Positions 24,056-42,603 of a stretch of DNA of 55,868 nt are shown here, one piece after another. This DNA is from Polyangia bacterium (GTDB taxonomy: Bacteria > Myxococcota_A > Polyangia > Fen-1088). The position numbers were made by a program, and so were the translations under genes. Within the stretch, counting starts at the first letter, position 1. Every line of letters starts with the position of its first letter. Below the pieces are notes generated by a model. The model had not been told where the DNA came from. It worked only from the letters and a program-made list of their open reading frames with translations, and searched no databases. Where the stretch lies: the NCBI GenBank assembly GCA_035546175.1, contig DASZWW010000039.1:1-55868 (forward strand), given 5' to 3'.

Positions 24056-26811
24056 TGAACAAACGCCTTCGCTTCGCCCTCGCCTTCTCCTCTGGCTTCA
24101 TGGCGGTGGCCGCGACCGCCGGCCCCGCCGCCGCGCAGTCGCTGCGCCCCAACATCCTCATCCTCTTCGACACGTCCGGCTCGATGCAGCTCGACGCGAC
24201 CGAGACGTGGGCGGGCGAGCGCGTCAACGAGTCGGCCGGCAGCTGCCCCGCCGTGCCCGCCGGAAAGGCGAGCCGTCTCTTCTCGCTCAAGGCCGCGATC
24301 CGTGACGCGCTCGCGCAGGTCGGCACCGACGAGGCGAACTTCGGCCTGATGTCCTTCCCGCAGCTCGTCGATCCGACGCTGACCCAGCCGCCGCCGGCGA
24401 GCGATCCGTCGCGCGGCGCGATGGGCTTCGGTTGCTTCGACTGCACCTCCGAGGGCTGCGGCGTGGGCCCGGTCGGCCACTACTACCTCGACTCGACCGT
24501 CGGCCTCGGCTGCCGCATCTCCACCGATCCCGCGAACACGCTGAACTCGACGGTGACCGAGCCCGCCTACGGGCCCTGGTTCGACTCCGCGATCAGCCAG
24601 GCGCTGCGCGTCGACCTCACGAAGGCGGCGCCCGGCACGAAGCCCGTGGCGACGGACTTCGACCCGCCCGACGCGAACATCGCGCGCATCTACAAGTTCA
24701 TCGACGACACCGAGAACCCTGGTCCCGTCGCGAACGTCGCGGCGCTGACCGATCCCGAGCTCCACGCGAACGGCGCGACGCCGCTCGGGCGCTCGCTGTT
24801 CTACGCGCGCCTCTACTTCGACAACTTCATCAACACGACGGCCGATCCGCGGCGCGCTTGCCGCCAGAACATCGTCATCGTCGTGACGGACGGCAACGAC
24901 ACGTGCGACAACGTCTCGGGCACGGCGCTCAACTACCAGACCTGCGCGCAGACGGGCTTCTCGACGTTCCAGCCCGAGGTGCAGGCCTGCAAGCTCCTGC
25001 GCGGCGCCTCGCAGGTGAAGACCTACGTCATCACCGACCAGAACGTCACGGGCAACCTCAACTCGAACATCGCCATCGCGGGCGGCACGGGCGGCGCCAT
25101 CAAGGTCTCGCTCACCGACACGGCGGCCGTGAAGGCGGCCCTCATCGGCATCATCGCCGCGACGGTGCCGCCCGCCGAGGTCTGCAACGGCAAGGACGAC
25201 AACTGCAACGGCCTCATCGACGAGGGCGTGAGCAACAAGTGCCCCGTCTCGAACGATCCCAACGACCCGGACAACAAGCTGGGCGCGGCGGCCGCTCACT
25301 GCGCCACCGAGTCGTGCAACTGCAAGGACGACAACTGCGACGGCCAGATCGACGAGGGCCTGCCCACCAACGCGTGCGGCGGGCCGTGCGGCTGCGCCGT
25401 GCCGCCCGAGATCTGCGACGGCCTCGACAACAACTGCGACGGCAACGTCGACGAAGGATTCCTCGTGGGCACGGCCTGCACGAACGGCCTGCTGGGCGCG
25501 TGCCGCCGCGGCGGCATCCTCGCCTGCAACGCCGGCGGCACGGGCACGGTCTGCGACGCGCCCGCCGTCGCGCCCACGCAGGAGGTCTGCGACAACATCG
25601 ACAACGACTGCAACGGCCAGAAGGACGACGGCGTGCTGCCCGGCGTGGGCGAGGCGTGCGGCGCGGCGCTCGGCGTCTGCATGGCGGGCGTCACGGCGTG
25701 CGTCAACGGCCACCTCGTCTGCGAGCAGATGAGCATGCCCATGCAGGAGGTCTGCAACGGCAAGGACGACGACTGCGACGGCGTCATCGACAACGGCAAC
25801 CTGCCGGGGACGGGCGAAGACTGCCTCTGCCCGGGCGAGACGCAGGCCCAGGTCGGCGTCGGCGTCTGCAAGGCCGGCAAGACCGTCTGCCGCGGCGGCA
25901 AGATCGTCTGCGACGGCTGCGTCGGCCCGAGCGCCGAGATCTGCGACGGCAAGGACAACGACTGCGACGGCCAGGTCGACACGCAGGCCACCTGCCCCAG
26001 CAACTTCGCGTGCCGCGAGGGCTCGTGCACGCCCGTCTGCAAGCCCGGCGAGTTCCCGTGCCCCGCGGGCTACCAGTGCATCGACACGTTCTGCATCCCG
26101 CAACGCTGCATCAACGTGACCTGCCCCTCGGACCAGAAGTGCGACAACGACACCGGCCTCTGCGTCGACAAGTGCGACAAGGTGACCTGCCTCGCGCCCA
26201 CGCACTGCAAGGCCGGCCTCTGCGTCGACTGCAACTCGCCGGGCGAGGGCTGCGATCCGGGCCAGATGTGCATCGGCGGCGTGTGCCAGTCGGATCCGTG
26301 CGTGGGCGTGAGCTGCGGAAACGGGACCTATTGCTCGGCCGGCAAGTGCGTGGACCTCTGCACGCACATCGATTGCAACGTGGGCGAGAGCTGTATTGCC
26401 GGCCAGTGCGTCTCTGATCCGTGTGCCAACAAGGCGTGCTTGCAGAACCAGTTCTGCGACATGGCCACCGGCGAGTGCAAGATGGACACCTGCCAGGCCA
26501 TCCAGTGCCCGGGCGGCCAGCGCTGCATCCAGAGCACGGGCCAGTGCGCGGCCGATCCGTGCGCCTTCGTGCAGTGCCCGCAGCCCTGCTACGCCTGCGA
26601 CGTCACGAGCGGCGGGACGCCGACGTGCAAGTTCCTCGACGACGGCGCGCACCCGCAGTGCGCGCTCGTTCACGTGACGACGGGGCAGAAGGGGGGAGGG
26701 TGCTCGTGCGCCGTGGGCCCGGGCACGGACTCGTCGAGCCTCGCCCTCGCCGTCGCCGCGCTCGGCATCGTCATGACGTTGCGTCCGCGCCGCCGCCGCC
26801 GGACCTCCTGA
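24055..26811 (+). CDS. Giant Cys-rich surface protein: signal peptide, vWA domain, six Cys/Asp metal-binding-type motifs, Cys repeats, MYXO-CTERM
   Basis: ATG 24055 overlaps the upstream stop (TAATG). Signal peptide ending in AAAQ. vWA MIDAS residues LILFDTSGSM and VIVVTDGNDTC. Six CxGxDDxCxGxxD motifs, about 10 four-Cys repeats, and a C-terminal GGGCSCAVG + helix + RPRRRRR. Confidence 0.85.
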   Translation: MNKRLRFALAFSSGFMAVAATAGPAAAQSLRPNILILFDTSGSMQLDATETWAGERVNESAGSCPAVPAGKASRLFSLKAAIRDALAQVGTDEANFGLMSFPQLVDPTLTQPPPASDPSRGAMGFGCFDCTSEGCGVGPVGHYYLDSTVGLGCRISTDPANTLNSTVTEPAYGPWFDSAISQALRVDLTKAAPGTKPVATDFDPPDANIARIYKFIDDTENPGPVANVAALTDPELHANGATPLGRSLFYARLYFDNFINTTADPRRACRQNIVIVVTDGNDTCDNVSGTALNYQTCAQTGFSTFQPEVQACKLLRGASQVKTYVITDQNVTGNLNSNIAIAGGTGGAIKVSLTDTAAVKAALIGIIAATVPPAEVCNGKDDNCNGLIDEGVSNKCPVSNDPNDPDNKLGAAAAHCATESCNCKDDNCDGQIDEGLPTNACGGPCGCAVPPEICDGLDNNCDGNVDEGFLVGTACTNGLLGACRRGGILACNAGGTGTVCDAPAVAPTQEVCDNIDNDCNGQKDDGVLPGVGEACGAALGVCMAGVTACVNGHLVCEQMSMPMQEVCNGKDDDCDGVIDNGNLPGTGEDCLCPGETQAQVGVGVCKAGKTVCRGGKIVCDGCVGPSAEICDGKDNDCDGQVDTQATCPSNFACREGSCTPVCKPGEFPCPAGYQCIDTFCIPQRCINVTCPSDQKCDNDTGLCVDKCDKVTCLAPTHCKAGLCVDCNSPGEGCDPGQMCIGGVCQSDPCVGVSCGNGTYCSAGKCVDLCTHIDCNVGESCIAGQCVSDPCANKACLQNQFCDMATGECKMDTCQAIQCPGGQRCIQSTGQCAADPCAFVQCPQPCYACDVTSGGTPTCKFLDDGAHPQCALVHVTTGQKGGGCSCAVGPGTDSSSLALAVAALGIVMTLRPRRRRRTS
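25183..25992 (+). repeat. Six copies of a C-x-G-x-D-[DN]-[DN]-C-[DN]-G-x-[IVK]-D motif (MopE-like putative metal-binding motif)
   Basis: CNGKDDNCNGLIDEG, CNCKDDNCDGQIDEG, CDGLDNNCDGNVDEG, CDNIDNDCNGQKDDG, CNGKDDDCDGVIDNG and CDGKDNDCDGQVDTQ. Confidence 0.7.
25993..26628 (+). repeat. About 10 degenerate four-Cys repeats related to those of the upstream gene
   Basis: CVGVSCGNGTYCSAGKCVDL, CTHIDCNVGESCIAGQCVSDP, CQAIQCPGGQRCIQSTGQCAADP and others. Confidence 0.7.
26692..26808 (+). other. MYXO-CTERM-type C-terminal sorting signal (protein 2)
   Basis: GGGCSCAVGPGTDSSSLALAVAALGIVMTLRPRRRRRTS. Confidence 0.75.
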
Positions 26812-26854
26812 GGCGCGGCAGGTCCGCCCTTCTGATGGTAAGTTGAAGGGGCCC

Positions 26855-28522
26855 ATGGCGAAGAACGGCCGCTACAAGATCGTCCGGAAGGTCGCGGACG
26901 GCGGCATGGCCGAGATCTTCCTGGCGACGCAGACCGGGCGGGAGGGCTTTCAGAAGCCCGTCATCCTGAAGCGGATCCACAGCACGATCTACGCGGACCC
27001 GCAGTTCCGCAACATGTTCATCGACGAGGCCCACATCTCGATGGGCCTCTCGCACAGCAACATCGTCCAGATCCTCGACCTCGGCGTCGGCAACGGCCGC
27101 TACTTCCTGGTCATGGAGGTCGTCGACGGCTGGGACCTCGGGCGCCTCATCTTCCGCGCCGCCCAGGCGGGCACGCCGCTGCCGCGCGACCTCGGCCTCT
27201 ACGTCGCCGCGGAGGTGTGCCGCGCGCTCGCGTACGCCCACGGCAAGACCGGCCCCGACGGCCAGCTGCTCGGCATCGTCCACCGCGACGTCAGCCCGCA
27301 GAACATCCTCGTCAGCGAGCAGGGCGAGGTGAAGCTCACGGACTTCGGCATCGCCAAGGCCATGGGCAAGCGCGAGCAGACGGGCACGGGCGTCGTCAAG
27401 GGCAAGGTCGCCTTCATGTCGCCCGAGCAGGCGCTCGGCAAGGTCATCGACGCGCGGTCGGACCTGTTCGCCGTGGGCGTCGTGCTCTACCAGCTCATGA
27501 CGGGCGTGCGTCCGTTCGAGGCGCCCACCGACCTCGAGACGCTGCTGCGCGTGCAGAAGGCGGACTTTCGCCCGCCTCACGTCGTCGCGCCCGACCTGCC
27601 GCCCCACGTGAGCGCCATCATCTCGCGGGCGATGCAGCTCGATCCGGACCTGCGCTACCAGAGCGCCGAGGAGATGCTCACCGACATCGAGCAGGTGCTG
27701 CGCACGGTGTTCCGGCCCGTGGGCCAGACCGAGCTCAAGCGCTGGCTCGCGGGCCTGGGCGCCCGCGACGGGCTCCTGCCGATGGCCAAGGCCGGGCACA
27801 CGCCGGCGCACGGGCGCCTGACGGGCACGGGCGAGATGGACGGCAAGGACGTCGTGCTCGAGGAGGTCGACGCCGAGGAGGCCACCTCGCTCGCCGACAT
27901 CGACGAGGACGGCGAGATGCGGCCGCGCATGACGAGGCCGCGCGGCGCCGCCGACGAGCTCGCGTTGCCCGTGCCTCACGACGACGAGGCGGCGCTCTCG
28001 GGCAAGATGAACGCCCTCGAGTTCCCGCTGCCCATCCCCGACCAGGAGGAGCGCCCGGGCCGGCGCCGCTCGAAGCACGGGGGCGGCTTCGCGCTGCTCT
28101 TCGTGGGCGCCTTGATCCTCGCGGGCGCGGCCTTCGGCGGCCAGTACTTCGGGCTCCTGCGCGAGAAGATGAGCGGGCTGACCTCGGCCGTGGCGCCGTC
28201 GGCATCCTCGCCTTCGCCCGCGCCGGACAAGGCGGCCGCGGCTCCCGAGAAGGCCGCCGCGGCCTCCGCGAAGGCGGCCGCGGGGCCGGACGCGGGCGCG
28301 GCGGCGGCGAGCCCGCCTCCGAGCCACCTGGCTGCGCACAAAGCCGAGGACGAGCCCGCGCACGAGCCGGTGCACCGCTCGCGCGCTGTGACGGAGAAGC
28401 ACGAGCACAAGAGCCACATGGACGAGCTCAAGAACATGATGGCGCCCGACCCGTCGCTGGATCCCGCGCCCGCGCCGAGCGTCCCGCCGCCGGCGCCCGC
28501 GCCGTCGCCAGAGAACCCGTAG
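26855..28522 (+). CDS. Membrane-anchored Hanks-type Ser/Thr protein kinase
   Basis: ATG 26855 (TTG 26843 is the tracked alternative). Catalytic residues are intact: VILK, HRDVSPQN, DFG, SPE. One TM helix (FALLFVGALILAGAAFGG) and an Ala/Pro-rich C-terminal tail. Confidence 0.85.
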   Translation: MAKNGRYKIVRKVADGGMAEIFLATQTGREGFQKPVILKRIHSTIYADPQFRNMFIDEAHISMGLSHSNIVQILDLGVGNGRYFLVMEVVDGWDLGRLIFRAAQAGTPLPRDLGLYVAAEVCRALAYAHGKTGPDGQLLGIVHRDVSPQNILVSEQGEVKLTDFGIAKAMGKREQTGTGVVKGKVAFMSPEQALGKVIDARSDLFAVGVVLYQLMTGVRPFEAPTDLETLLRVQKADFRPPHVVAPDLPPHVSAIISRAMQLDPDLRYQSAEEMLTDIEQVLRTVFRPVGQTELKRWLAGLGARDGLLPMAKAGHTPAHGRLTGTGEMDGKDVVLEEVDAEEATSLADIDEDGEMRPRMTRPRGAADELALPVPHDDEAALSGKMNALEFPLPIPDQEERPGRRRSKHGGGFALLFVGALILAGAAFGGQYFGLLREKMSGLTSAVAPSASSPSPAPDKAAAAPEKAAAASAKAAAGPDAGAAAASPPPSHLAAHKAEDEPAHEPVHRSRAVTEKHEHKSHMDELKNMMAPDPSLDPAPAPSVPPPAPAPSPENP

Positions 28523-28644
28523 CCCGCTCGCCGCTGGCGCACCGTTTCAATCGCGCCGCGCGCCGCGGCCGGGCCCGGAGTTTCCGTTCCGGGGGGCAGC
28601 GGTGTCTGTCTGGGCGTTCGCAACAGCGACCAAAGGAGAACGAG

Positions 28645-29646
28645 ATGAAGCGGCTGACCTCGATGTGCGCGCTGGTGGTATGGACGTCGGTCCTCGCGGG
28701 GACGGGCTGCCGGAAGGCCGACGACGACGCGTACCGCGCCGGCATCCCCACGCGGGAGGCCGTGTCGCTGCACGTCGCCGGCGCGCCGGCCGACGGGACG
28801 AACGGCGCCGTGGGCGCGCTCCTCGGCGAGAAGGCCGGGACGTACGAGGTCACGCGGGCCGTGACGGCGGTGGTCAACGGGGGCACGTGGGCCGTGCTCA
28901 CGCTCGTCCGCACGGTGGTCTCGTTCCCCGCGACGACCGTCGGGACCGACTCGGCCGTGTGGGGGCCGTACCACGACGCGCTCTCCCTCGACACCTGGCG
29001 CCTGACCGTGACGCGCGTGCAGCCGCACGTGTTCCAGTGGGTCTTCGAGGGCAAGGACAAGAGCCTGGGCGACGACGCCTACCTCACGATCATCTCGGGC
29101 ACGCACACGGCGGCCCTCGACCAGATGGGTAATCCCATGGAGGGCTTCGGCAACGGCGACTTCACGATCGACTGGAACAAGGCGGCGATGCTCCCGCAGC
29201 ACGACGACAACGTCGGCGTGGCGGCGTTCACCTACTCGCGCCTCACGGCGGACGCGACGGTCACGATCGACGTCGACTTCACGGGCATCCAGGACGCGAC
29301 GACGAAGGAGATCTTCGACGCGAAGTATCGCTACACGTCGACGCCGGGGCAGGGCGGGACGCTCCGCTACGCGGAGGACAAGGACAACGTCCCGGGGCCG
29401 GGCCCCACGGGCACCGCCAAGGAGCACTTCACGATCGAGAGCCGCTGGACCGAGGACGGCGTGGGCCGCTGCGATCTCGAGGACTCGGGCGGCGACCTCG
29501 GCGCGACGGTCGCGCACGGCTCGGAGTGCTGGGACGATCGCTTCGACAGCGTGTACCGCGCCCTCGACTACCCGGACCCCATGGGCAACTGGGGCGCCGA
29601 GTCGGCGTGTACGGCCTTCCCCGCCGCGGAGTACTCGAATCTGTAA
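28645..29646 (+). CDS. Lipoprotein of unknown function (paralogue A)
   Basis: ATG 28645 follows AAGGAG. Lipobox LAGTGC. Only the last 333 aa of ORF 27217..29646 are credible. Shares blocks with the 32710..33681 product (VWGPY, FTY, ECWDxxF, terminal NL). Confidence 0.7.
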   Translation: MKRLTSMCALVVWTSVLAGTGCRKADDDAYRAGIPTREAVSLHVAGAPADGTNGAVGALLGEKAGTYEVTRAVTAVVNGGTWAVLTLVRTVVSFPATTVGTDSAVWGPYHDALSLDTWRLTVTRVQPHVFQWVFEGKDKSLGDDAYLTIISGTHTAALDQMGNPMEGFGNGDFTIDWNKAAMLPQHDDNVGVAAFTYSRLTADATVTIDVDFTGIQDATTKEIFDAKYRYTSTPGQGGTLRYAEDKDNVPGPGPTGTAKEHFTIESRWTEDGVGRCDLEDSGGDLGATVAHGSECWDDRFDSVYRALDYPDPMGNWGAESACTAFPAAEYSNL

Positions 29647-29690
29647 AATGGGAACCTCGAGAGGGCGCCCAGACCCTCTCCGTGACCGGC

Positions 29691-29714
29691 GCCGGCGGGC
29701 CTTGCCCGCCGGCA
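29691..29714 (+). terminator. GC hairpin between lipoprotein A and the ECF sigma gene
   Basis: GCCGGCGGGC, loop CTTG, GCCCGCCGGC (perfect 10-bp stem). Preceded by a second 7-bp hairpin, GAGAGGG/CCCTCTC, at 29659-29680. No T-run, so terminator function is uncertain. Confidence 0.35.
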
Positions 29715-29736
29715 CCTTCGCGTCGAGACGCTCGAA

Positions 29737-30288
29737 ATGACGGAACGCCAGAGCCGCCCGAACCTGAAGCTCGTCGCCGGCGGCAAGGCCGACGACACGC
29801 GGGCGGCGCTGCGCGAGCTCTACGCGACGTACGGCGGCAGCGTGTTCGGGCGCTGCCAGTACCTGCTGCGCGATCGCGTCAAGGCCGAGGACGCCATGCA
29901 GGACGTGTTCGCGAAGGCGCTCCTCCATTGGAGCGAGTTCCGCAACGAGTCGTCGCCGCTCACCTGGCTCATCCGCATCGCCACGCACCACTGCCTCAAC
30001 GTGCAGCGCGCCGAGCGCGCGCCCTGGCACCAGCGCTTCGCGCGGCAGGAGCGGGCGCGCGGCGAGGGCCACGGCGGGCCGCAGCGGCTCGAGGACCGCG
30101 ACACCGTGCGCGCGTTGCTGGGCCGGCTCGACGTCGAGACGCAGCAGGCGGCCATCCACTACTTCGTCGACGAGATGACGCTCGACGAGGTGGCCAGGGC
30201 GCTCGGGCGCTCGGTGCCCACGGTTCGCAAGAGGTTGGAGAGCGTGTCGGCCCTGGCCGACCGGAGCCTGAAGGAGATCAAGGAATGA
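29737..30288 (+). CDS. ECF-type RNA polymerase sigma-70 family factor
   Basis: Region 2 (DAMQDVFAKALLHWSEFRNESSPLTWLIRIATHHCLN) and region 4 HTH (MTLDEVARALGRSVPTVRKRL). 183 aa. Confidence 0.85.
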   Translation: MTERQSRPNLKLVAGGKADDTRAALRELYATYGGSVFGRCQYLLRDRVKAEDAMQDVFAKALLHWSEFRNESSPLTWLIRIATHHCLNVQRAERAPWHQRFARQERARGEGHGGPQRLEDRDTVRALLGRLDVETQQAAIHYFVDEMTLDEVARALGRSVPTVRKRLESVSALADRSLKEIKE

Positions 30289-31070
30289 CGGCTTCCCCGA
30301 TGGAGAGTCACGTGGGTGAGCTCGCGCTGCGCCGGCTCCGCGCCGGCGAGGCGCTGCCCGACGCCGAGACGCACGCGAGCGCGTGCGCGGACTGCCGCGC
30401 GCGCCTCAAGGGCCTCGACGACGAGCAGCGGCGCTTCGAGCAGGAGATCTCGTTCGATCGCTTCGCGGCCGGCGTCGAGCGCGCCTCGCGCGCGGCGGCG
30501 CCCCGCCCCGAGCGCTCCGCGCGCGTCGCCCGCTCGCTGCGCTTCATGGTGCCGACGCTGAGCCTGGCGGCCGGCGTCGCGCTCTTCCTGACCTTCACGT
30601 CGCGGCACGAGCCGCGCGGGCCGAACCGCCTCATGGGCGGCGCGGCGGACATCACCGTGCGCGTCGCGGCGGGCGACGGCCCGCAGCGCACGGCGTCCCC
30701 GAGCGCGCCCGAGGCGCTCGCGCCGGGCGAGCGCGTGCGCATCGGCTACCACGCGGGCCCGCACCGCTACCTGCTCTCGCTCTCGATCGACGAGCGCGGC
30801 CAGGTGACGCCGCTCTACCCGGAGTCGGGGCGCAGCGTCGCCGTCGGCAAGGTCGTGGGCGCGGCGCCGAGCTACCTGCCCGACAGCGTCGAGTTCACGG
30901 ACTCGGGCACCGAACGCCTGTTCGTCATCCTCAGCGACCAGCCCATCGATGTCGAGGCGGCGCGGCGCGCGGCCCGGGCCGCCTTCGAGCGCGCCAAAGG
31001 GGATATCCTGCACATGCCGGCGCTCGAGCTGCCCGGAGAGCAGTTCCAGCGGACGTTCATCAAGCCGTGA
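30285..31070 (+). CDS. Zinc-finger anti-sigma factor with periplasmic DUF4384-like domain
   Basis: ATG 30285 overlaps the sigma stop (ATGA). H-x3-C-x2-C (HASACADCRARL). One TM helix (VPTLSLAAGVALFLTF). The C-terminal YLLSLSIDERGQVTPLYP ... LPDSVEFTDSGTERLFVILSDQPI matches the DUF4384 pattern as I recall it. Confidence 0.75.
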   Translation: MTASPMESHVGELALRRLRAGEALPDAETHASACADCRARLKGLDDEQRRFEQEISFDRFAAGVERASRAAAPRPERSARVARSLRFMVPTLSLAAGVALFLTFTSRHEPRGPNRLMGGAADITVRVAAGDGPQRTASPSAPEALAPGERVRIGYHAGPHRYLLSLSIDERGQVTPLYPESGRSVAVGKVVGAAPSYLPDSVEFTDSGTERLFVILSDQPIDVEAARRAARAAFERAKGDILHMPALELPGEQFQRTFIKP

Positions 31071-31115
31071 CGTTTTCGTCGATGATCTGAGCCCCCGCCG
31101 GCGTCCATCACCGTC

Positions 31116-32720
31116 ATGAAGCGGACCAGCCTCGCCCTCGCCTGTGTCTCGGCGCTCCTGGCGCTCGCCGGGCCCGCGCGCGCCGAGGGCCTGCACCGCT
31201 TCGCCGTCGTGGTCGGCAACGACACGGGCGGCGCCGACACGCGGCCGCTCCTCTACGCCCGCGCCGACGCGCGCAAGGTGCATGACATCCTCACGCGGCT
31301 CGGCGGCGTCGCGGCGGCCGACGCCCAGCTCCTCCTCGACGGCAGCGCGCAGGACCTGCTGTCCGCGCTCGCGCAGACCGAGCGCCGCGCCGCCGAGGCG
31401 CGCGTCCGCGGCGAGCGCACGGCGCTCGTCCTCTACTACTCGGGCCACGCCAAGGACGGCGCGCTCCGGCTCGGCGACACGCGCCTGCCGCTCGACTCGC
31501 TCCGGGCCCGCATCGCCGCCTCGCCCGTCGACGTGCGCATCGCCATCCTCGACTCCTGCCGCTCGGGCGAGCTGACGCGCACGAAGGGGGAGACGAAGGG
31601 CGCGCGCCGTGCCCCCGCGTTCCAGATCCAGGCCGAGGGCCCGCGCGACGCCAAGGGCCTCGTCATCCTGACCTCGAGCTCGTCGGACGAGGACTCGCAG
31701 GAGTCGGACCTCGTGGGCGGCAGCTACTTCTCGCACCACCTCGCGAGCGGCCTCCTGGGCGGCGCCGACAAGTCGGGCGACGGCCGCGTCACGCTCTTCG
31801 AGGCGTACGCCTACGCGTACGAGCGCACCGTCGCCGACACGGCCGAGACGGCCGCCGGCCCCCAGCACCCGACGTTCAGCTACGACCTCGCGGGCAACGG
31901 CGACCTCGTGCTGACCGACGTCGCCGCCCGCCGCGAGGGAATCTACCTTCCACGCGAGGCGCCCGGCGGGGTCTATTACCTCGTGGACCGGCAAGGCTTC
32001 GTGGCCGCCGAGATCGTCAAGAACGAGAGCGACCGGCGCATCGCGCTGCCGCCCGGCCGCTACCGCGTCAAGCGCCGCCTCGCCGATCGCCTGCGCGTCG
32101 GCGAGATCGACGTCGTCTCGGGCCAGATGATCACGCTCGACGAGGGGCACCTCCGCGACGCGCCCTTCTCCGACGATCCGGTCAAGGGCGCGATGCGCGT
32201 CGACGTGTCCCGCTGGTCCGTCGGCGTGGGCGGCGGCTTCCAGTCCGTGTTCGACGCGCCCACGCGCGAGAGCCTCTTCCCGCCGACGGGGCTCCTGGGC
32301 GTCGAGCTGCAGCTGCGCGGCTTCTTCCGCCGCGACTGGGTCTGGGGCGTCGACGCCGCCGCCGGCGGCGCGAACGGCGCCGTGCCGCTCTCCTCGTCGG
32401 GCGGCGCGGCGGCGTTCCGGTTCAACGAGGTCTCGCTGGCGTCGTCGCTCGTCGTCGAGTGGCCGCACCGAGCCGTCACGCCCTTCGTCGGCGGGCGCCT
32501 GGCGCTGCTCCTCATGACGCGCCGATTCGACGAGGACGCCTTCCCCGCGCAGTACTTCTCGACGCTCTCGCCCGGGATCGTCGGAGGCGCGACCTGGCAC
32601 CTCTCGCGCGGCTGGGGCCTCGTCGCGCGCGGGCGCGTGCACTACCTCCTCTACAACGTGGACGAGAACCGCTCCCTCGGCTTCTGGGAGCTGCAAACGG
32701 CGGTGTCATATGACCTCTAG
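31116..32720 (+). CDS. Secreted caspase-fold (peptidase C14) protein fused to a C-terminal beta-barrel-like domain
   Basis: Signal peptide ending in ARA-EG. Catalytic His in YYSGHAKDG (codon 31446-31448) and Cys in ILDSCRSG (codon 31557-31559). The last ~170 aa alternate hydrophobic/polar like a small OM barrel (WSVGVGGGFQ, LLGVELQLRGFF, FRFNEVSLASSLVVEW, GLVARGRVHYLLY, WELQTAVSYDL). Confidence 0.8.
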   Translation: MKRTSLALACVSALLALAGPARAEGLHRFAVVVGNDTGGADTRPLLYARADARKVHDILTRLGGVAAADAQLLLDGSAQDLLSALAQTERRAAEARVRGERTALVLYYSGHAKDGALRLGDTRLPLDSLRARIAASPVDVRIAILDSCRSGELTRTKGETKGARRAPAFQIQAEGPRDAKGLVILTSSSSDEDSQESDLVGGSYFSHHLASGLLGGADKSGDGRVTLFEAYAYAYERTVADTAETAAGPQHPTFSYDLAGNGDLVLTDVAARREGIYLPREAPGGVYYLVDRQGFVAAEIVKNESDRRIALPPGRYRVKRRLADRLRVGEIDVVSGQMITLDEGHLRDAPFSDDPVKGAMRVDVSRWSVGVGGGFQSVFDAPTRESLFPPTGLLGVELQLRGFFRRDWVWGVDAAAGGANGAVPLSSSGGAAAFRFNEVSLASSLVVEWPHRAVTPFVGGRLALLLMTRRFDEDAFPAQYFSTLSPGIVGGATWHLSRGWGLVARGRVHYLLYNVDENRSLGFWELQTAVSYDL

Positions 32721-33681
32721 ACGTCTCGTGCTCGGCGCGGCGCTCGCCGCCTCGTTCGTCGCGGCCTGCGGCAACTACTCGAACGAGGACCTCGAGTACA
32801 TGAACGCCCTGCCCCAGGGCGAGGACCTGCAGGTCAGCATCCCGCCCGTGACGAGCGCGGTCGAGCTGGCCAACGAGGCGGAGCTCGCCAAGTCGACGCA
32901 CGACACGACGCGGAACCTGAACGGGCTGCTCATGGGGCTCGTGGGCATCGTCGACACGGTGCGCACCCTCCCGCCGACCGGGCGCACGGCCACGAGCCGC
33001 ATCTGGGGGCCGTACCCGGCCGATCGCACGAAGCTGAAGAACCTCGACTGGGAGACGCGGATGATCGTGAGCCGCGACGACACGGACCTCGGGCGCTTCG
33101 ACTACGAGATCGACGTCCACCACCAGGGCGCCGCCGACACCGACTGGCCCGTGCTCATCCAGGGCTGGTTCCAGGTCGGCAAGACCGCGCGGCGGGGCAT
33201 GGGGCACGTCGAGCTCCTCACGGCCGTCGCGCGCGGCGAGGGCTACGACACCTCGGACCTCGGCATGCTCGACCACCTGGAGATCGACTACGACACGAGC
33301 GCCGATCCCGTGACCGTCACGATGCACATCACCGACCTGCCGGCCGCCGGCAGCACGGATCCCGCGCCCACGGCCGCGTTTACCTACGCTCAGAACGCGG
33401 CGGGACAGGGGCAGATGACCTTCGACCTCGTGGGGAACCTCATCGCGCTGACGCCCGCGATCGAGGACCTGCGGATCACGAGCCACTGGCTCGCCACGGG
33501 CGAGGGTCGCGCCGACCTCACGGTGGTCTCGGGCGATGGTGCCGGAGCGCAGCAAACCCAGTGCTGGGGCCGGTCCTTCCAGGAGACGTACAACGACAAG
33601 CCCTGGGCCCCGGCCGAGGACTTCCCGAGCAACCCGCCGGGCGACCCTGCGGATTTTTGCCCAGTTATTCCAAATCTTTGA
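32710..33681 (+). CDS. Lipoprotein of unknown function (paralogue B)
   Basis: ATG 32710 overlaps the caspase gene end by 11 nt. Lipobox FVAAC. Blocks shared with 28645..29646: RIWGPYPA, FTYAQN, QCWGRSFQETY, terminal PNL. Confidence 0.7.
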   Translation: MTSRRLVLGAALAASFVAACGNYSNEDLEYMNALPQGEDLQVSIPPVTSAVELANEAELAKSTHDTTRNLNGLLMGLVGIVDTVRTLPPTGRTATSRIWGPYPADRTKLKNLDWETRMIVSRDDTDLGRFDYEIDVHHQGAADTDWPVLIQGWFQVGKTARRGMGHVELLTAVARGEGYDTSDLGMLDHLEIDYDTSADPVTVTMHITDLPAAGSTDPAPTAAFTYAQNAAGQGQMTFDLVGNLIALTPAIEDLRITSHWLATGEGRADLTVVSGDGAGAQQTQCWGRSFQETYNDKPWAPAEDFPSNPPGDPADFCPVIPNL

Positions 33682-33841
33682 CGGCTGTGAGCCGAGAGGG
33701 ACGAGGCTCCGCGAGGTCTGACGCGCAGGCGTCGAAAACTCTACCGGGAACCGGAATCCGGGGATGGATTCGCGAGATGGTTCCAGGGTATGATGATGTC
33801 TCACCACCCGGCGCCGCCGCCCGGGAGAAGGACCTCACGCC

Positions 33842-34168
33842 TTGGCCGAGCACTTTCGACGAATCGACCCCCGTTACGAACGCCAGCTGGACGTGGAGGT
33901 CGTGGCGGACGGCAAGAAGAGCACGTCCCGCACCGTGAACATCTCGCTGGGCGGGCTGTTCCTGGACTCGACGACGCCTCTCGATCTGGGCGCGACCGTC
34001 CAGCTCCGGTTCCAGCTCCCCACCCAGCCCGAGCCGGTCGAGGTCGCGGGCGACGTGCGGTGGGTCGTGAAGAAGGACGGCAACCGGCAGGGCATCGGCA
34101 TCCGGTTCCAGGGCCTCCGCGCCCGCGACGTCTGGGCCCTGAACCAGTTCTTCCAGACCAGCGCGTAG
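33842..34168 (+). CDS. PilZ domain protein
   Basis: RRIDPR (RxxxR) and NISLGGLF (D/NxSxxG) c-di-GMP-binding motifs. 108 aa. Only a TTG start is available at 33842. Confidence 0.7.
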   Translation: MAEHFRRIDPRYERQLDVEVVADGKKSTSRTVNISLGGLFLDSTTPLDLGATVQLRFQLPTQPEPVEVAGDVRWVVKKDGNRQGIGIRFQGLRARDVWALNQFFQTSA

Positions 34169-34211
34169 TCGGGCCCCCGGGGGCGCTGCGGCCTGGGCCC
34201 CGGTCCCGGGC

Positions 34212-36620
34212 TCAGCGGACGCCGTCCGGCAGCAGCGGGGACGGCGTCGCCGTGTACGTCACCCAGAGCTGGTGGGCGGCGCGCGTCATCGCGACGTGCA
34301 AAAGGCGGCGCGCGTCGTCGCTCTTGCCGTAGGACGACTCGTTGACGTCGAGCAGAATGACAATGTCGAACTCGAGGCCCTTCGTCTGGCGCACGTCCGT
34401 GACGTCGATGCCCGCCGTGAAGGAGAAGTCCTGGTCGGCCACCAGGCGCAGCGCGGGCACCTCGGCGCGCGCCAGGGCGTCGTAGTAGAGCATCGCCTGC
34501 TCGGGGTGGCGCGCGAGCAGGGCGACCGAGGCCTCGGGCTCGGCGCGGACGAGCTCCTTGAGCGCGTGCGACAGGAACTCGGCGCACTCGCCCGCCGACC
34601 CGAAGCCGAACGCCTCGACGGGCGCGCCCGCGCGCGGCGCCACGGGCCGCACGTCGCCCTGCAGGGGGCCGAGGACGTGCTCGGCGGCCTCGACGATCTC
34701 GCGCGTCGAGCGGTACGAGACGCGCAGGGGCTCGACGCGCTCGTGAGCGATGCCCAGGTCGTCGAGCAGCTCGGCCCAGTTCGAGAAGCCGTGCTCGGGC
34801 GCGATGGCCTGGGCCGTGTCGCCCGCGAGGGTCACGGAGCGCTGCTTGCTCGTCGTGTCGAGCAGCACGGCGAGCTCGAGGGGCGAGAAGTCCTGCACCT
34901 CGTCGACCATGAGGTGCTCGTACGCGAGCGGACCCGACGACGAGCCCTTCGGCCCCGGCAGCGGCCCGCGCTGCAGCTGGTAGATGCGCAGGAGGAGGGC
35001 GTCGTCCTCGGCGTCGAAGGCGAAGCCCTCGCCGTCGTCCTCGAGCTTGCCGCCCGTGCGCAGGCGGTCGCGCGCCACGCACCACCGGTGGACGTCGTCG
35101 AGCTGCCCGTCCGAGAAGACGCCGGGGGCGTGCTTCGCGAAGCCGGCGCGCAGGGCCTCGCGATCGGTGAGGAGCGACGCCCACTCGCCCGTCACGTCGC
35201 GGGTGCGCGCGCGGAGGGCGCGGCCGACGTTCTCGAGCGCCGTGCGGGCCGAGGGCTCGAGCGCGGCGTCGCGCACCCAGGTCGCGAAGACGGTGACGCG
35301 CTGGTCGACGGGGCCGCCCGGCACGGCGGCGTCCCACGCGGCGAGGGCGGCGCCGGCCGAGCCGCGGGCGGCGGGCTCGTCGGCGAGCCGCTCGAGCTGT
35401 CCGCGGCACCAGGCCGCGAGCGCCACCTGCCGATCGAGGAGGATCTTGAGCATCGCGCCGTGCGCCTTCGCGCGCATCACGACGGGCGGCGTCTCGTCGG
35501 TGATCGGCGCCTCGAGCAGCGGCAGCGCGGCCTTGCGCGTCTCCGTGGCCCAGGCCGCGAAGGTCATGACGGGCACGCCCTCGACGTCGAGCGCGGGCAG
35601 GACGCGCGAGACGTACGCCGCGAGCGCGCGCTGGTACACGACGATGAGCATCCGCTCGGGGCGGAAGCGGCGCGGATCGGCGAAGGCCAGGTAGGCGATG
35701 CGGTGCAGGCCGATCGTCGTCTTGCCGCTGCCGGCCGAGCCCTGCACGGCGATGAGGCCGGAGGCCGGGTGCGTGATGAGCTCGAACTGGCGCGGATCGA
35801 TCAGCGCCGCGATGGCGGGCAGGTGGCGGTCGGGCCGCCGCTGCCCGCTCTCGTCGAGGCCGAGCCTGCCGCGCACGGCGGAGGCCGCGGGCGCGGCGCC
35901 CTTCGCGGGGCGGGTGGGGATGAGCGTCGCGGCGCTGCCGTCGCGGGCGATCTGGAGCTTCGCCTGCTGGGTCGCGACCTGGCGCCAGGCGCCGGTGCGA
36001 AAGTCGCGGCTGAACGTGCCCTGCGGCGCCGCGACCCGGCGCAGCTCGGCGTCGACGATCGCGACCGTCCGGCGCGCGAGCACCTCGCCCTCGACGAGCC
36101 TGTCGCCGAGGCGCTCCTCGTAGGCGTCGCCCTCCTCGTAGCGGTAGAAGAGCCGCGACACGGGGGCGTTGCGCCAGTCGACGATCTGGACGCCGCCGCC
36201 CGGCTCGACGTAGCTGCGCGCGCCGATGAGCACGTCCCGCCGCTTGCCGCCCTCCTCGAGGCGCAAGTGCCCGAAGTAGGGCGACTTGCGATCGACGGGC
36301 GGGCTGTCGCCCTTCCCGCGCTGGCGCGAGAGGGCCTCGATCCGGTGCATCTGCTCGAGGATCGATCCCTGGTCCTCCGGCTTCGCCGTGGCCAGCTGGT
36401 CGCGCAGCTCGATGAGCGAGCTCGCGTCGTCCACGGGCGCGCGGGCCTTGCGCGGCGCCGCGGCGTCCAGCTTGCGCAGCACGACGGTCAGGAGCTGCTG
36501 CTCCTCGGCGACGATGGGGAACTCGGCCCCCGACGCGGCGTCGGGCGGGAGCGCGGCCTCGGGCGAGGGGTCTGCCGTCGACGGAATGTCGTTCTGCGGA
36601 TCCAAGAGATCGGTCAGCAT
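34212..36620 (-). CDS. UvrD-superfamily ATPase of the HelD / helicase IV type
   Basis: Walker A GSAGSGKTTIGLHRIAYL, DEVQDF, VSYRSTREI, TKGLEFD and HVAMTRAAHQLW. The N-terminal VDWRNAPVSRLFYRY block is typical of RNA-polymerase-associated HelD-like proteins. Start at ATG 36620 (36659 is the alternative). Confidence 0.75.
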   Translation of the reverse strand: MLTDLLDPQNDIPSTADPSPEAALPPDAASGAEFPIVAEEQQLLTVVLRKLDAAAPRKARAPVDDASSLIELRDQLATAKPEDQGSILEQMHRIEALSRQRGKGDSPPVDRKSPYFGHLRLEEGGKRRDVLIGARSYVEPGGGVQIVDWRNAPVSRLFYRYEEGDAYEERLGDRLVEGEVLARRTVAIVDAELRRVAAPQGTFSRDFRTGAWRQVATQQAKLQIARDGSAATLIPTRPAKGAAPAASAVRGRLGLDESGQRRPDRHLPAIAALIDPRQFELITHPASGLIAVQGSAGSGKTTIGLHRIAYLAFADPRRFRPERMLIVVYQRALAAYVSRVLPALDVEGVPVMTFAAWATETRKAALPLLEAPITDETPPVVMRAKAHGAMLKILLDRQVALAAWCRGQLERLADEPAARGSAGAALAAWDAAVPGGPVDQRVTVFATWVRDAALEPSARTALENVGRALRARTRDVTGEWASLLTDREALRAGFAKHAPGVFSDGQLDDVHRWCVARDRLRTGGKLEDDGEGFAFDAEDDALLLRIYQLQRGPLPGPKGSSSGPLAYEHLMVDEVQDFSPLELAVLLDTTSKQRSVTLAGDTAQAIAPEHGFSNWAELLDDLGIAHERVEPLRVSYRSTREIVEAAEHVLGPLQGDVRPVAPRAGAPVEAFGFGSAGECAEFLSHALKELVRAEPEASVALLARHPEQAMLYYDALARAEVPALRLVADQDFSFTAGIDVTDVRQTKGLEFDIVILLDVNESSYGKSDDARRLLHVAMTRAAHQLWVTYTATPSPLLPDGVR

Positions 36621-37423: not shown

Positions 37424-41154
<3,731 letters not shown>

Positions 41155-41158
<4 letters not shown>

Positions 41159-42114
41159 GACTTCTTCCTGTCGGAGGTGAGGGTCGCGAACGCCGTCACG
41201 ACCTGAAAATAAGGCGCGCGGCGCTCGCGGGAGGTGATCTCGCAGGCCTCGACCGTGAGCCCGGCCTTGCCGAGGAGGCGCTGCAGCGCCGCCGGCGCGA
41301 AACCGGGATGCAGGTGCCCGTAGGCCGACGTGACGTCCAGGTGGTCGTGCTCGGCGAGCGACACGAGGGCGAGCCGCCCGCCCGGCCGCAGCACGCGCGC
41401 GGCCTCGCCGAGCGCGGCGCCCGGCTGCTTGAGGAACGGCAGCACGTTCAGCAGCAGCACCTGGTCGAACGACGCGCGCGCGAAGGGCAGGTCGTGCGCG
41501 TCGGCCACCTCGCACCGCGCGTTCGGGTGGCCGGCCAGGCGCCCGCGCGCGGCGTCGACCAGCTTCTCGCTGACGTCGACGCAGGTGATGGTGCGCGCGC
41601 GCGGCGCGAGCAGCTGCGCCGTCGCCCCGTCGCCCGCGCCCACGTCGAGCACGTCGCCGAGCGCGAGCAGGCCGATGACGCCGCCCGCGAGCGCCTCCCA
41701 GGTCCGTCCCGGCGAGTAGTGCCGCTCCATCTCGCCGGCGATCGACTCGGGCCAGCCCGCGCCCGACTTCTTCGCGCTGCGCGCGCGGAGCTGCGCCGCG
41801 CAGCGCTGCTTGTCCGCCGCGAGCTGCGCGTCGTCGAGCGCGCCGGAGACGAGCTCCCAGAGCTTGCGGGCTTGGCCCGGCATCTCGCCGTTGGCGAGGC
41901 TGTAGAACGTCGACCCGCCGACGCGCTTGTCGCGCACGAGGCCCGCCTCGCGCAGCTTCCCGAGGTGGGTCGACACGCGCGACTGCCCGAGCTCGGTGAT
42001 GCTCGTCAGCTCGTTGACCGTCAGCTCGTGCTCGGCGAGCAACGCCAGCAGGCGCACGCGCGACGGCTCGGCCAGCAGGCCCAGCAGGTTCGTCGTCGCG
42101 CCGAGGGTTTCCAT
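41155..42114 (-). CDS. ArsR-family HTH fused to class I SAM-dependent methyltransferase domain
   Basis: ArsR wHTH ([48 protein letters not shown]) plus a SAM motif ([12 protein letters not shown]; [10 protein letters not shown]). The stop overlaps the metH start (ATGA). Confidence 0.85.
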
Positions 42115-42216
42115 ATCCGCGTATCCTGATTAATCGATAGCATGGCAGCGGGGCCGCGGCAAGGCCCGGGCGAGGATCCTCGCGATCCGATCGCCCTCGA
42201 GCCTCGTACTGCCGGC

Positions 42217-42603
42217 ATGCCTCACACGAACGAGACGCTGCTCCGGCAGGCCTACGACCTCTTCGCCCGCGGCGACGTGCCGGGGTTCCTCGCGCTGTGC
42301 GCCCCCGACATCCGCTTCAAGGTGCCGGGGCACAACCGGCTCTCGGGCGAGCACACCGTCGGCGCCTTCCTGGACGTCCTGGGGCCGGCGATGCAGGTCA
42401 CCGGCAACACCTTCCGCGAGAGGGTCGTCTACCTCGCGGCGAACGACACCGACGGCTTCGTCCTGGCGGCGCAGAAGCTCGAGCGCGACGGCAAGCTCTA
42501 CGAGTGGAACGCCGCCCATCACTGGCGCATCGCCGGCGGCAAGCTCACGCAGTTCTGGGAGTTCGTCGACGACGAGCGGACCTACGACGCCGCCTGGCGG
42601 TAG
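42217..42603 (+). CDS. SnoaL/NTF2-like small protein
   Basis: ATG 42217 ([34 protein letters not shown]...[14 protein letters not shown]). Pattern is that of ketosteroid-isomerase-like NTF2 folds. Confidence 0.65.

Follow-up and report, generated by a model that had tools for sequence, protein, structure and literature searches.

Can a caspase-fold protease act as the envelope trigger of a sigma factor of the extracytoplasmic function (ECF) class? The question is raised by a locus on a 55,868-nt contig of a Polyangia bacterium (GenBank assembly GCA_035546175.1, contig DASZWW010000039.1, hereafter the window), in which genes for an ECF sigma factor, a membrane anti-sigma factor and an exported caspase-type protease follow one another. 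Among bacterial signal-transduction systems, ECF sigma factors form a major class, with the activating step known for a minority of groups only, and bacterial caspase-fold proteases are abundant, with few having an assigned substrate. An earlier note on this DNA had described three linked same-strand genes at 29737-32720 and had suggested the anti-sigma sensor domain as a docking partner or substrate of the protease. The coordinates, motifs and spacing that it gave were all correct by open reading frame (ORF) listing and hidden Markov model (HMM) scans; the unit, however, comprises five genes behind a putative ECF-type promoter of their own, with two conserved lipoprotein genes, lipoA and lipoB, enclosing the three. 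We surmise that the caspase may be the site-1 protease of an autoregulated, Myxococcota-specific trans-envelope ECF switch, a tentative reading to which we give a little less than an even chance. The mechanistic idea itself appears plausible, is somewhat strengthened by the present analysis, and has precedent.

Results

Genes were taken from the ORF listing and its translations, and domains from Pfam and NCBIfam HMM scans. On this basis the predicted transcription unit is a five-gene operon, lipoA-sigma-antisigma-caspase-lipoB (28645-33681, + strand; Table 1). The sigma stop and anti-sigma start codons overlap as ATGA and the caspase start codon lies 45 nt beyond the anti-sigma stop, both as the earlier note had read them, while caspase and lipoB overlap by 11 nt; we take this arrangement to reflect probable translational coupling and count it in favor of a caspase-gated switch. 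Searching one genome for each GTDB species with aligned anti-sigma relatives gave 80 loci, all in Myxococcota and ranging from Polyangia metagenome-assembled genomes (MAGs) to Myxococcus, Archangium and Vitiosangium, and a metagenome scan with a more distant anti-sigma subgroup added 59 further loci. Counting, for each gene, the loci with enough flanking DNA only, tblastn of the window proteins found sigma (119/119), the caspase (107/107), lipoA (97/97) and lipoB (86/86) without exception, with gene order constant down to 36-38% anti-sigma identity. Strict conservation of the triad in Myxococcota, a check that the earlier note had proposed, is thus borne out across Polyangia and Myxococcaceae, and the linkage of sigma, anti-sigma, caspase and lipoprotein genes is far beyond chance. 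We count this co-occurrence, too, in favor of a caspase-gated switch. General synteny does not explain the five-gene core, because the genes on either side, for a Ser/Thr kinase and a PilZ-domain protein, accompany it in Polyangia-like genomes alone, both being absent in Myxococcaceae. The names given to the Vitiosangium orthologs by the Prokaryotic Genome Annotation Pipeline are generic only.

The triad of sigma, anti-sigma and caspase also recurs as a paralogous copy lacking the flanking lipoproteins, which we count in support of the earlier note's reading. The anti-sigma periplasmic domain of this copy is 31-37% identical and its caspase 36-40% identical to those of the five-gene form, the zinc motif reads C-x-H-x3-C-x2-C, and the caspase (513-520 residues) carries a barrel. 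In 4 of the 5 places that were looked up (L144, L145, L147 and a JGI contig), the three genes stand in the same order without lipoA and lipoB. One of these, L144, occurs together with L022, a locus of the five-gene form, in a single MAG (SMAG_U5423), and the triad has therefore been retained as a unit after duplication.

The sigma factor was readily placed, as the earlier note had it, with Sigma70_r2 (48.9 bits) and Sigma70_r4_2 (29.4 bits) both above their cut-offs and TIGR02937 at 73.9 bits vs. a cut-off of 42.9; comprising sigma-2 and sigma-4 regions only within 183 residues, it belongs to the ECF (group 4) class, with AlgU/SigH-type proteins and SigK as its nearest solved relatives. In the anti-sigma factor, the HxxxCxxC zinc motif and single transmembrane helix reported earlier were both recovered, the motif as H30-x3-C34-x2-C37 with an upstream H9, and all four ligands are invariant in 44 relatives. 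The family profile aligns in register, if weakly (E 0.055), with the ChrR zinc site H6/H31/C35/C38. With four ligands, an N-terminal helical domain and a gene overlapping that of an ECF sigma factor, the protein is of the zinc-binding anti-sigma (ZAS; class I anti-sigma domain) type. An HMM check against zf-HC2 (PF13490) gave a divided answer, the window protein remaining unmatched at E ≤0.1 while 10/44 relatives match (best 1.6e-5). The AlphaFold2 (AF2) model of the anti-sigma has a mean predicted local distance difference test (pLDDT) of 82.7, with helices 12-70 above 90, a low-scoring transmembrane span and a periplasmic domain at about 90-98.

That periplasmic domain had been likened to DUF4384, a likeness that holds in part. 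The match to DUF4384 (PF14326) covers positions 2-81 of the 81-position profile at 17 bits (E 0.006), short of the gathering threshold of 27, but 36/44 relatives match at E ≤0.01 (best 4.6e-5) and several distant relatives carry a precomputed PF14326 match (P0415, P0417, P0441 and others). By its profile match, then, the domain is best described as a divergent DUF4384-like domain and not a curated member, because 17 bits lies under the Pfam cut-off even though matches recur consistently across relatives. Against the PDB, the modelled domain gave weak Ig-like or RhoGDI-like matches alone (E ≥0.015). A profile search with the domain returned 1198 clusters (50% identity) at E ≤1e-3, and among the best 150 of these nearly all are proteins of 250-290 residues with the domain C-terminal; therefore, small anti-sigma factors with a DUF4384-like sensor constitute a sizeable family. 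NCBI records of several anti-sigma orthologs (P0018, P0057, P0059, P0113, P0114 and P0423) bear the name 'ACP synthase', for which the sequence gives no support and which looks like a propagated misannotation.

The protease had been described as a secreted caspase with an intact dyad. The signal peptide and the dyad stand, but the protein is apparently not freely secreted, since it ends in an OmpA-like barrel. Peptidase_C14 (PF00656) matches at 39.5 bits vs. a gathering score of 21.4. The dyad, H111 in YYSGH and C148 in DSCRSG, is invariant in 68/68 orthologs and retained in the paralogs, and Asp146, at position -2 from Cys148, is likewise invariant in 68/68. We surmise that the protease is under selection as an enzyme, because the dyad and this S1-type Asp are both invariant among the orthologs. 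In having Asp-x-Cys, and not the Gln-Ala-Cys of Asp-specific caspases, the protein resembles metacaspases and MALT1 (metacaspase/paracaspase type), which suggests, by analogy with these, a preference for a basic P1 residue (Arg/Lys). Residues 149-203 are among the best conserved parts of the protein (R155, K161, G162, R164, P167, A168 and F169, then LTSS..DEDSQESD); this basic-rich stretch sits at the position of the inter-subunit/regulatory loop of caspases and metacaspases and may be an autoprocessing site.

In Foldseek comparisons, the N-terminal part of the caspase model matched MALT1, caspase-7, caspase-3 and a metacaspase (E 1e-6 to 1e-3). The C-terminal part, in which the model has seven long strands at pLDDT 80-92 (residues 366-509) and leaves a conserved tail unmodelled, resembles 8-stranded outer-membrane proteins and matched the OmpA transmembrane domain (0.61), Ail (0.65), NspA (0.63) and OmpX (0.58) by TM-score normalised to the target; the range of 0.58-0.66 to 1bxw, 3qrc, 1p4t and 1qj9 assigns it to the barrel fold, and no barrel family in Pfam or NCBIfam matched the protein. 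The window caspase terminates in ...VSYDL, in which positions -1, -3 and -5 are hydrophobic or aromatic, and the paralogous caspases end in ...GGVFAF or GGAFGF, a canonical outer-membrane beta-signal. Judging from the models, the caspase is probably tethered to the outer membrane via the barrel. BamA, LptD and FapF likewise combine a soluble N-terminal part with a C-terminal barrel and keep the soluble part in the periplasm; by analogy, a periplasmic orientation of the caspase domain is most likely. Its barrel fold, together with the terminal Phe of the paralogs, would thus put the protease in the envelope, the compartment of the anti-sigma sensor domain. A literature search for outer-membrane orthocaspases, or for Peptidase_C14 together with ECF, found no papers, and a catalytic caspase domain borne on an outer-membrane barrel, if the model is right, appears to be an unreported architecture, as we found no paper describing one. 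We also considered the middle beta-sandwich of the caspase protein as a DUF4384-like domain or a relative of the anti-sigma sensor and rejected both (hhalign probability 1.3%).

LipoA and LipoB are full-length paralogs of each other (hhalign probability 100%, E 4.6e-43), with no relatives among Pfam, NCBIfam and PDB profiles. The invariant positions of this family include a W-G-P motif and a C-terminal Cys-Trp, and in the loci examined its members always flank the sigma/anti-sigma/caspase core. The +2 residue of the lipoprotein is variable in LipoA and always Gly in LipoB, from which we draw no inference on sorting.

Rate covariation was assessed in 65 non-redundant operons from pairwise distances of eight protein parts, with a partial Mantel statistic controlling for the mean of the other parts. 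The anti-sigma periplasmic domain co-varied with the caspase catalytic domain (partial r +0.44) more than sigma did with the anti-sigma domain, a known contact (+0.26), a difference that favors a caspase-gated switch. LipoA co-varied with the caspase catalytic domain (+0.44) and the anti-sigma periplasmic domain (+0.32), while the barrel went with LipoB (+0.50) and the sandwich with the barrel (+0.47); the anti-sigma periplasmic domain showed -0.07 with LipoB and -0.18 with the barrel. These values suggest two modules, an inner one of LipoA, the sensor domain and the caspase catalytic domain and an outer one that unites sandwich, barrel and LipoB, and we take them as no more than suggestive because the partial Mantel test over-states significance for related sequences.

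As regards regulation, k-mer enrichment and anchoring in related loci revealed a bipartite motif with fixed spacing 5' of lipoA in 75/75 loci (consensus cTTTCtgTTT-N8-GCcGTGTC, that is, a TTTC-N16-CGTGTC geometry). The window copy scores 26.8 bits with the position weight matrix (PWM) and is the sole match of at least 12 bits in the 55.9-kb window, both strands included; related loci totalling 1.5 Mb gave 112 PWM matches of at least 18 bits, nearly all at the position 5' of lipoA. The geometry is the one known from ECF promoters and differs from the sigma-70 consensus. A promoter is expected upstream of lipoA because the lipoA-sigma gap is below 10 nt in many loci, and the conserved putative ECF-like promoter found there is consistent with an autoregulated five-gene operon. 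A scan of 28300-34400 for canonical sigma-70 promoters and terminators found no promoter and one chance-level terminator, and a search 5' of lipoA for ECF promoters of the GGAAC-N-CGT type found essentially nothing. A GGGAAC...CCGT pair between lipoA and sigma in the window was discarded as a promoter candidate, with a spacing of 25 nt and an intergenic region that is absent or different in most loci.

Two further elements in the operon were observed. The lipoA-sigma spacer of the window holds a G+C-rich inverted repeat, of which a homologous element in L004 occurs in tandem duplicate; many other Polyangia loci have a different hairpin there (CCCGGGGTCGCGCGAGCGGCCCCGGG), and Myxococcaceae are almost without spacer. 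The repeat could serve as an attenuator or represent a small repeat element. The caspase gene of one sublineage contains, in its 3' end and about 100 nt 5' of lipoB, a second + strand TTTC-N16-CGTGTC copy (19-35 bits), at positions outside the window (L060:10241, L109:5440, L066:4586, L074:10262, L093:8253, L096:5846, L101:8280, L103:8277, L117:8295 and L122:4840). Its -10-like part encodes a conserved peptide, RGRVH, and the copy might serve lipoB as an internal promoter or might be a coincidence of the coding sequence.

Table 1. Predicted features of the operon, its proteins and its surroundings in the window
Feature	Nucleotides	Strand	Length or residues	Remarks
ECF-type promoter-like motif	28580-28609	+		36 nt 5' of the lipoA start codon; GTTTCCGTTCC-N-GCGGTGTCTGT
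lipoA	28645-29646	+	333 aa	Predicted lipoprotein; lipobox LAGTG-C; orphan family
Inverted repeat, lipoA-sigma spacer	29659-29680			GAGAGGG-N8-CCCTCTC
ECF (group 4) sigma-70 factor	29737-30288	+	183 aa	HMM matches
Anti-sigma factor, single-pass	30285-31070	+	261 aa	Zinc motif and periplasmic DUF4384-like domain
Anti-sigma, cytoplasmic zinc-type domain			1-70	H9, H30, C34, C37
Anti-sigma, transmembrane span			about 85-106	One hydrophobic stretch
Anti-sigma, juxtamembrane linker			105-117	Disordered (pLDDT <50); rich in basic residues
Anti-sigma, periplasmic beta-sandwich and helix	30642-31067		120-261	DUF4384-like
C14 caspase-fold protease, exported	31116-32720	+	534 aa	Peptidase_C14 match
Caspase, signal peptide			1-24	Sec-type; cut ARA/EG
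Caspase, caspase domain	31191-31865		26-250	His111, Cys148
Caspase, conserved stretch after Cys148	31560-31724		149-203	
Caspase, beta-sandwich	31875-32162		254-349	
Caspase, C-terminal OmpA/OmpX-like barrel	32211-32717		366-534	
lipoB	32710-33681	+	323 aa	Predicted lipoprotein; lipobox FVAA-C; +2 Gly
MopE-type repeat protein	23968-26811	+	947 aa	Just 5' of the kinase gene
Ser/Thr kinase	26843-28522			Membrane; Pro/Ala-rich tail; upstream of operon
PilZ-domain protein	33842-34168			Downstream of operon
B12-dependent methionine synthase ORF	37424-42316	-	1630 aa	First MetH domain from residue 405

Discussion

Recognizing that protease, putative substrate and sigma factor are encoded side by side, we postulate the following sequence of events. 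The anti-sigma domain would keep sigma inactive at the inner membrane, and the barrel would hold the protease in the outer membrane with its catalytic domain toward the periplasm. An envelope signal, probably relayed by the paralogous lipoproteins, which may modulate or sense, would bring the caspase to dock on the DUF4384-like domain; the caspase would then cut behind a basic residue of the anti-sigma, within the juxtamembrane region or close to it, with R115/K117 or the invariant Q134-R135 as candidates. This would be the site-1 cut, upon which an RseP-type site-2 protease and cytoplasmic proteases would release sigma, and the released sigma would transcribe the operon from the TTTC-N16-CGTGTC promoter as well as further regulon genes. 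We infer the cleavage step from gene and domain organization, as we infer localisation, the direction of regulation, the cleavage site and the signal. Two further points speak for the proposal, namely that DUF4384 is fused in cis to orthocaspases elsewhere and that some Csx30 proteins end in a DUF4384 domain.

The overall logic is that of RseA/DegS/RseP, in which a single-pass anti-sigma receives a periplasmic site-1 cut and an intramembrane site-2 cut and the operon is autoregulated. Here the likeness is one of architecture only, in that the anti-sigma crosses the membrane once, has a disordered juxtamembrane linker and is encoded next to a protease. In contrast to the site-1 enzyme of that system, an inner-membrane PDZ serine protease, the protease here would be an outer-membrane-tethered caspase-fold Cys protease, and the sensor domain of the window anti-sigma is unrelated to RseA/RseB.

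The earlier note knew of no case in which a caspase-fold enzyme is the extracytoplasmic trigger; this no longer holds, as two systems precede the present one. In the DdvA anti-sigma of M. xanthus, a periplasmic domain combining tetratricopeptide repeats (TPR) with a caspase-fold CHAT module and a His-Cys dyad has been proposed to be its own site-1 protease before RseP, on which dependence has been shown (PMC11506125). DdvA and the window system share the phylum, a zinc-type N-terminal anti-sigma domain, a single-pass topology, a caspase-fold His-Cys module in the periplasm and a proposed site-1 cut, and in both the protease action is a proposal. However, DdvA carries its CHAT/TPR module on the anti-sigma polypeptide itself, with action in trans inside a dimer as the proposed mode, whereas here a separate C14 protein carries the protease on a barrel, the 261-residue anti-sigma has a 140-residue sandwich as its sole periplasmic domain, and two lipoproteins stand alongside; no CHAT or TPR domain was found by Pfam in the five proteins, C14 being found instead. 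In the type III-E Craspase, Csx29 (TPR-CHAT, with Cas7-11) cleaves Csx30, which binds RpoE and Csx31 and whose C-terminal domain is DUF4384 in some lineages (bioRxiv 10.1101/2022.08.17.504292). The likeness lies in a caspase-like protease cleaving an anti-sigma-like protein that holds an ECF sigma factor, a cleavage that is a proposed step for the window system. Unlike Craspase, which is cytoplasmic, RNA-guided, of CHAT type and encoded in a CRISPR locus, the protease here is of C14 type and exported. PADLOC, whose models would cover Cas7-11, Csx29, Csx30 and Csx31, gave no significant match to any defence-system model in the window, and no CRISPR or other RNA families were found there with Rfam, no dedicated CRISPR-array scan having been made. 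Coupling of a caspase fold to ECF anti-sigma control is therefore known, and what would be new here, if the models hold, is a separate outer-membrane-anchored C14 enzyme in a five-gene operon.

The association of DUF4384 with caspases, which the earlier note had invoked, finds support in cyanobacteria, in which DUF4384 is a recurrent accessory domain of orthocaspases (23/473; PMC8283722). That DUF4384 is 'usually' attached to caspases goes too far, as it is also found with kinases and with trypsin-like or pseudo-orthocaspase proteins. The DUF4384-orthocaspases resemble the window system in their C14 p20-type domain, His-Cys dyad, Asp-x-Cys motif and DUF4384 association; they differ in being one polypeptide with no sigma link, whereas here the two would be separate proteins in different membranes. 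CHAT proteins have been noted in the context of group ECF54 (PMC8999054), and in the main text of the ECF re-classification paper (PMC7826278) caspases are not mentioned.

A number of observations weigh against a caspase-gated switch: 1) the fifth place looked up for the paralogous triad, P0441, is an orphan anti-sigma among cellulase genes, and a more distant relative, P0454, has sigma adjacent and no caspase, so that caspase association is strong, yet not obligatory for the whole family of DUF4384-like anti-sigma domains; 2) co-occurrence cannot separate regulator from effector because the genes of an autoregulated operon are all outputs; 3) the partial Mantel statistic inflates significance among related sequences; 4) the AF2 model of the caspase protein is of low confidence (mean pLDDT 66.5), with residues 26-148 well modelled and residues 149-203 unmodelled or disordered though highly conserved; 5) at position 117, at which the family has a near-invariant Lys, the window anti-sigma has Met, because of which the cleavage site is uncertain; and 6) with the sensor joined to the inner membrane by a linker of some 12 residues and the caspase at the outer membrane, reach across the periplasm is not assured. 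Lys117 had been considered as a universal P1 site, a candidacy that the Met of the window protein weakens.

A stand-alone caspase-fold site-1 protease, which would be the first for an ECF anti-sigma, could work as a sensor of envelope geometry, although we regard this as an improbable extension. The protease would hang from the outer membrane and its substrate would sit on a very short inner-membrane tether, with the cut occurring only upon the membranes nearing each other, upon a breach of peptidoglycan or periplasm, or upon bridging or release by LipoA and LipoB. If true, this would be a protease-based counterpart of the Rcs-type monitoring of periplasm width.

Among explanations other than a caspase-gated switch, the one that fares best, while still unlikely, is that the caspase and lipoproteins are sigma-regulated products, e.g. 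an outer-membrane protease complex for envelope remodelling or quality control. The anti-sigma would then sense its own signal through the DUF4384-like domain or the zinc site and be removed by DegS- or Prc-type site-1 proteases or by a conformational or redox change. Five genes behind one putative ECF-type promoter are outputs by construction; the ChrR-like zinc site and the existence of DUF4384-type anti-sigmas with sigma and without caspase also fit, and the identity of the caspase, at about 60% vs. about 38% for the anti-sigma, is that expected for an enzyme with other substrates. However, the paralogous triad retains the caspase beside the anti-sigma though the lipoproteins have been dropped, the rate covariation links specifically the anti-sigma periplasmic domain with the catalytic domain of the caspase, and DUF4384-caspase fusions are known elsewhere.

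It is also conceivable, if doubtful, that the caspase protein of the outer membrane, by binding to the anti-sigma periplasmic domain, keeps that domain shielded or in position, in the manner of TonB-dependent transducers with FecR-type anti-sigmas; the targets of the caspase would then be LipoA, LipoB, itself or foreign proteins, and release of the contact, rather than a cut by the caspase, would expose the anti-sigma to other proteases. In cell-surface signalling, an outer-membrane partner protects the anti-sigma (PMC11637429), and the window system has the same three tiers, an outer-membrane protein, an anti-sigma at the inner membrane and an ECF sigma factor. As in FecA/FecR/FecI, an outer-membrane barrel protein is encoded with an inner-membrane anti-sigma and an ECF sigma factor; unlike it, the operon has no TonB-dependent receptor, signalling domain or FecR domain in the Pfam scan of its five proteins, and the barrel is small and carries a protease. 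Covariation, including that of LipoA with the caspase catalytic domain, indicates some functional coupling and not its direction, as protection would also have it, but an invariant dyad beside an anti-sigma is more simply explained by cleavage of that anti-sigma, and caspase-fold cleavage in ECF control has precedent. That the caspase is a toxic effector of defence or programmed death (anti-phage or kin-conflict; cf. Craspase and the proteases linked to cyclic-oligonucleotide-based anti-phage signalling) with the ECF pair only controlling its expression is highly improbable, for although caspase-fold proteases are frequent in conflict systems, the protein weakly resembles the EACC1-associated caspase type of NCBIfam (59 bits vs. 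a cut-off of 140) and the DdvS/DdvA pair of M. xanthus controls a defence island, PADLOC gave nothing significant for the five proteins (the sole listed match being the sigma helix-turn-helix to mad1, 15 bits, E 0.005), the locus lies among housekeeping genes of uniform composition, it is present once and in the same order throughout the class, which looks like vertical inheritance, and the protease is exported to the envelope and not cytoplasmic.

The locus provides a defined candidate protease-substrate pair in more than 100 myxobacterial genomes and metagenome contigs, with cultured relatives in Vitiosangium (strain GDMCC 1.1324, WP_108068137-140) and Archangium. Should the protease indeed gate sigma, caspase-type ECF control, as known for Craspase and proposed for DdvA, would be extended from defence islands to a housekeeping envelope pathway, and DUF4384 would gain a concrete role as a caspase docking or substrate domain.

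Other features of the window

Composition is uniform throughout the window at about 72% G+C, and the housekeeping genes around the operon include those for MetH, MiaB-like and UvrD-like proteins and a hybrid kinase. The protein encoded just 5' of the Ser/Thr kinase gene has many MopE-type putative metal-binding repeats (PF11617, 91 bits). The long N-terminal stretch that precedes the first recognizable domain of the methionine synthase may be an artefact of the stop-to-stop ORF or a real extension.

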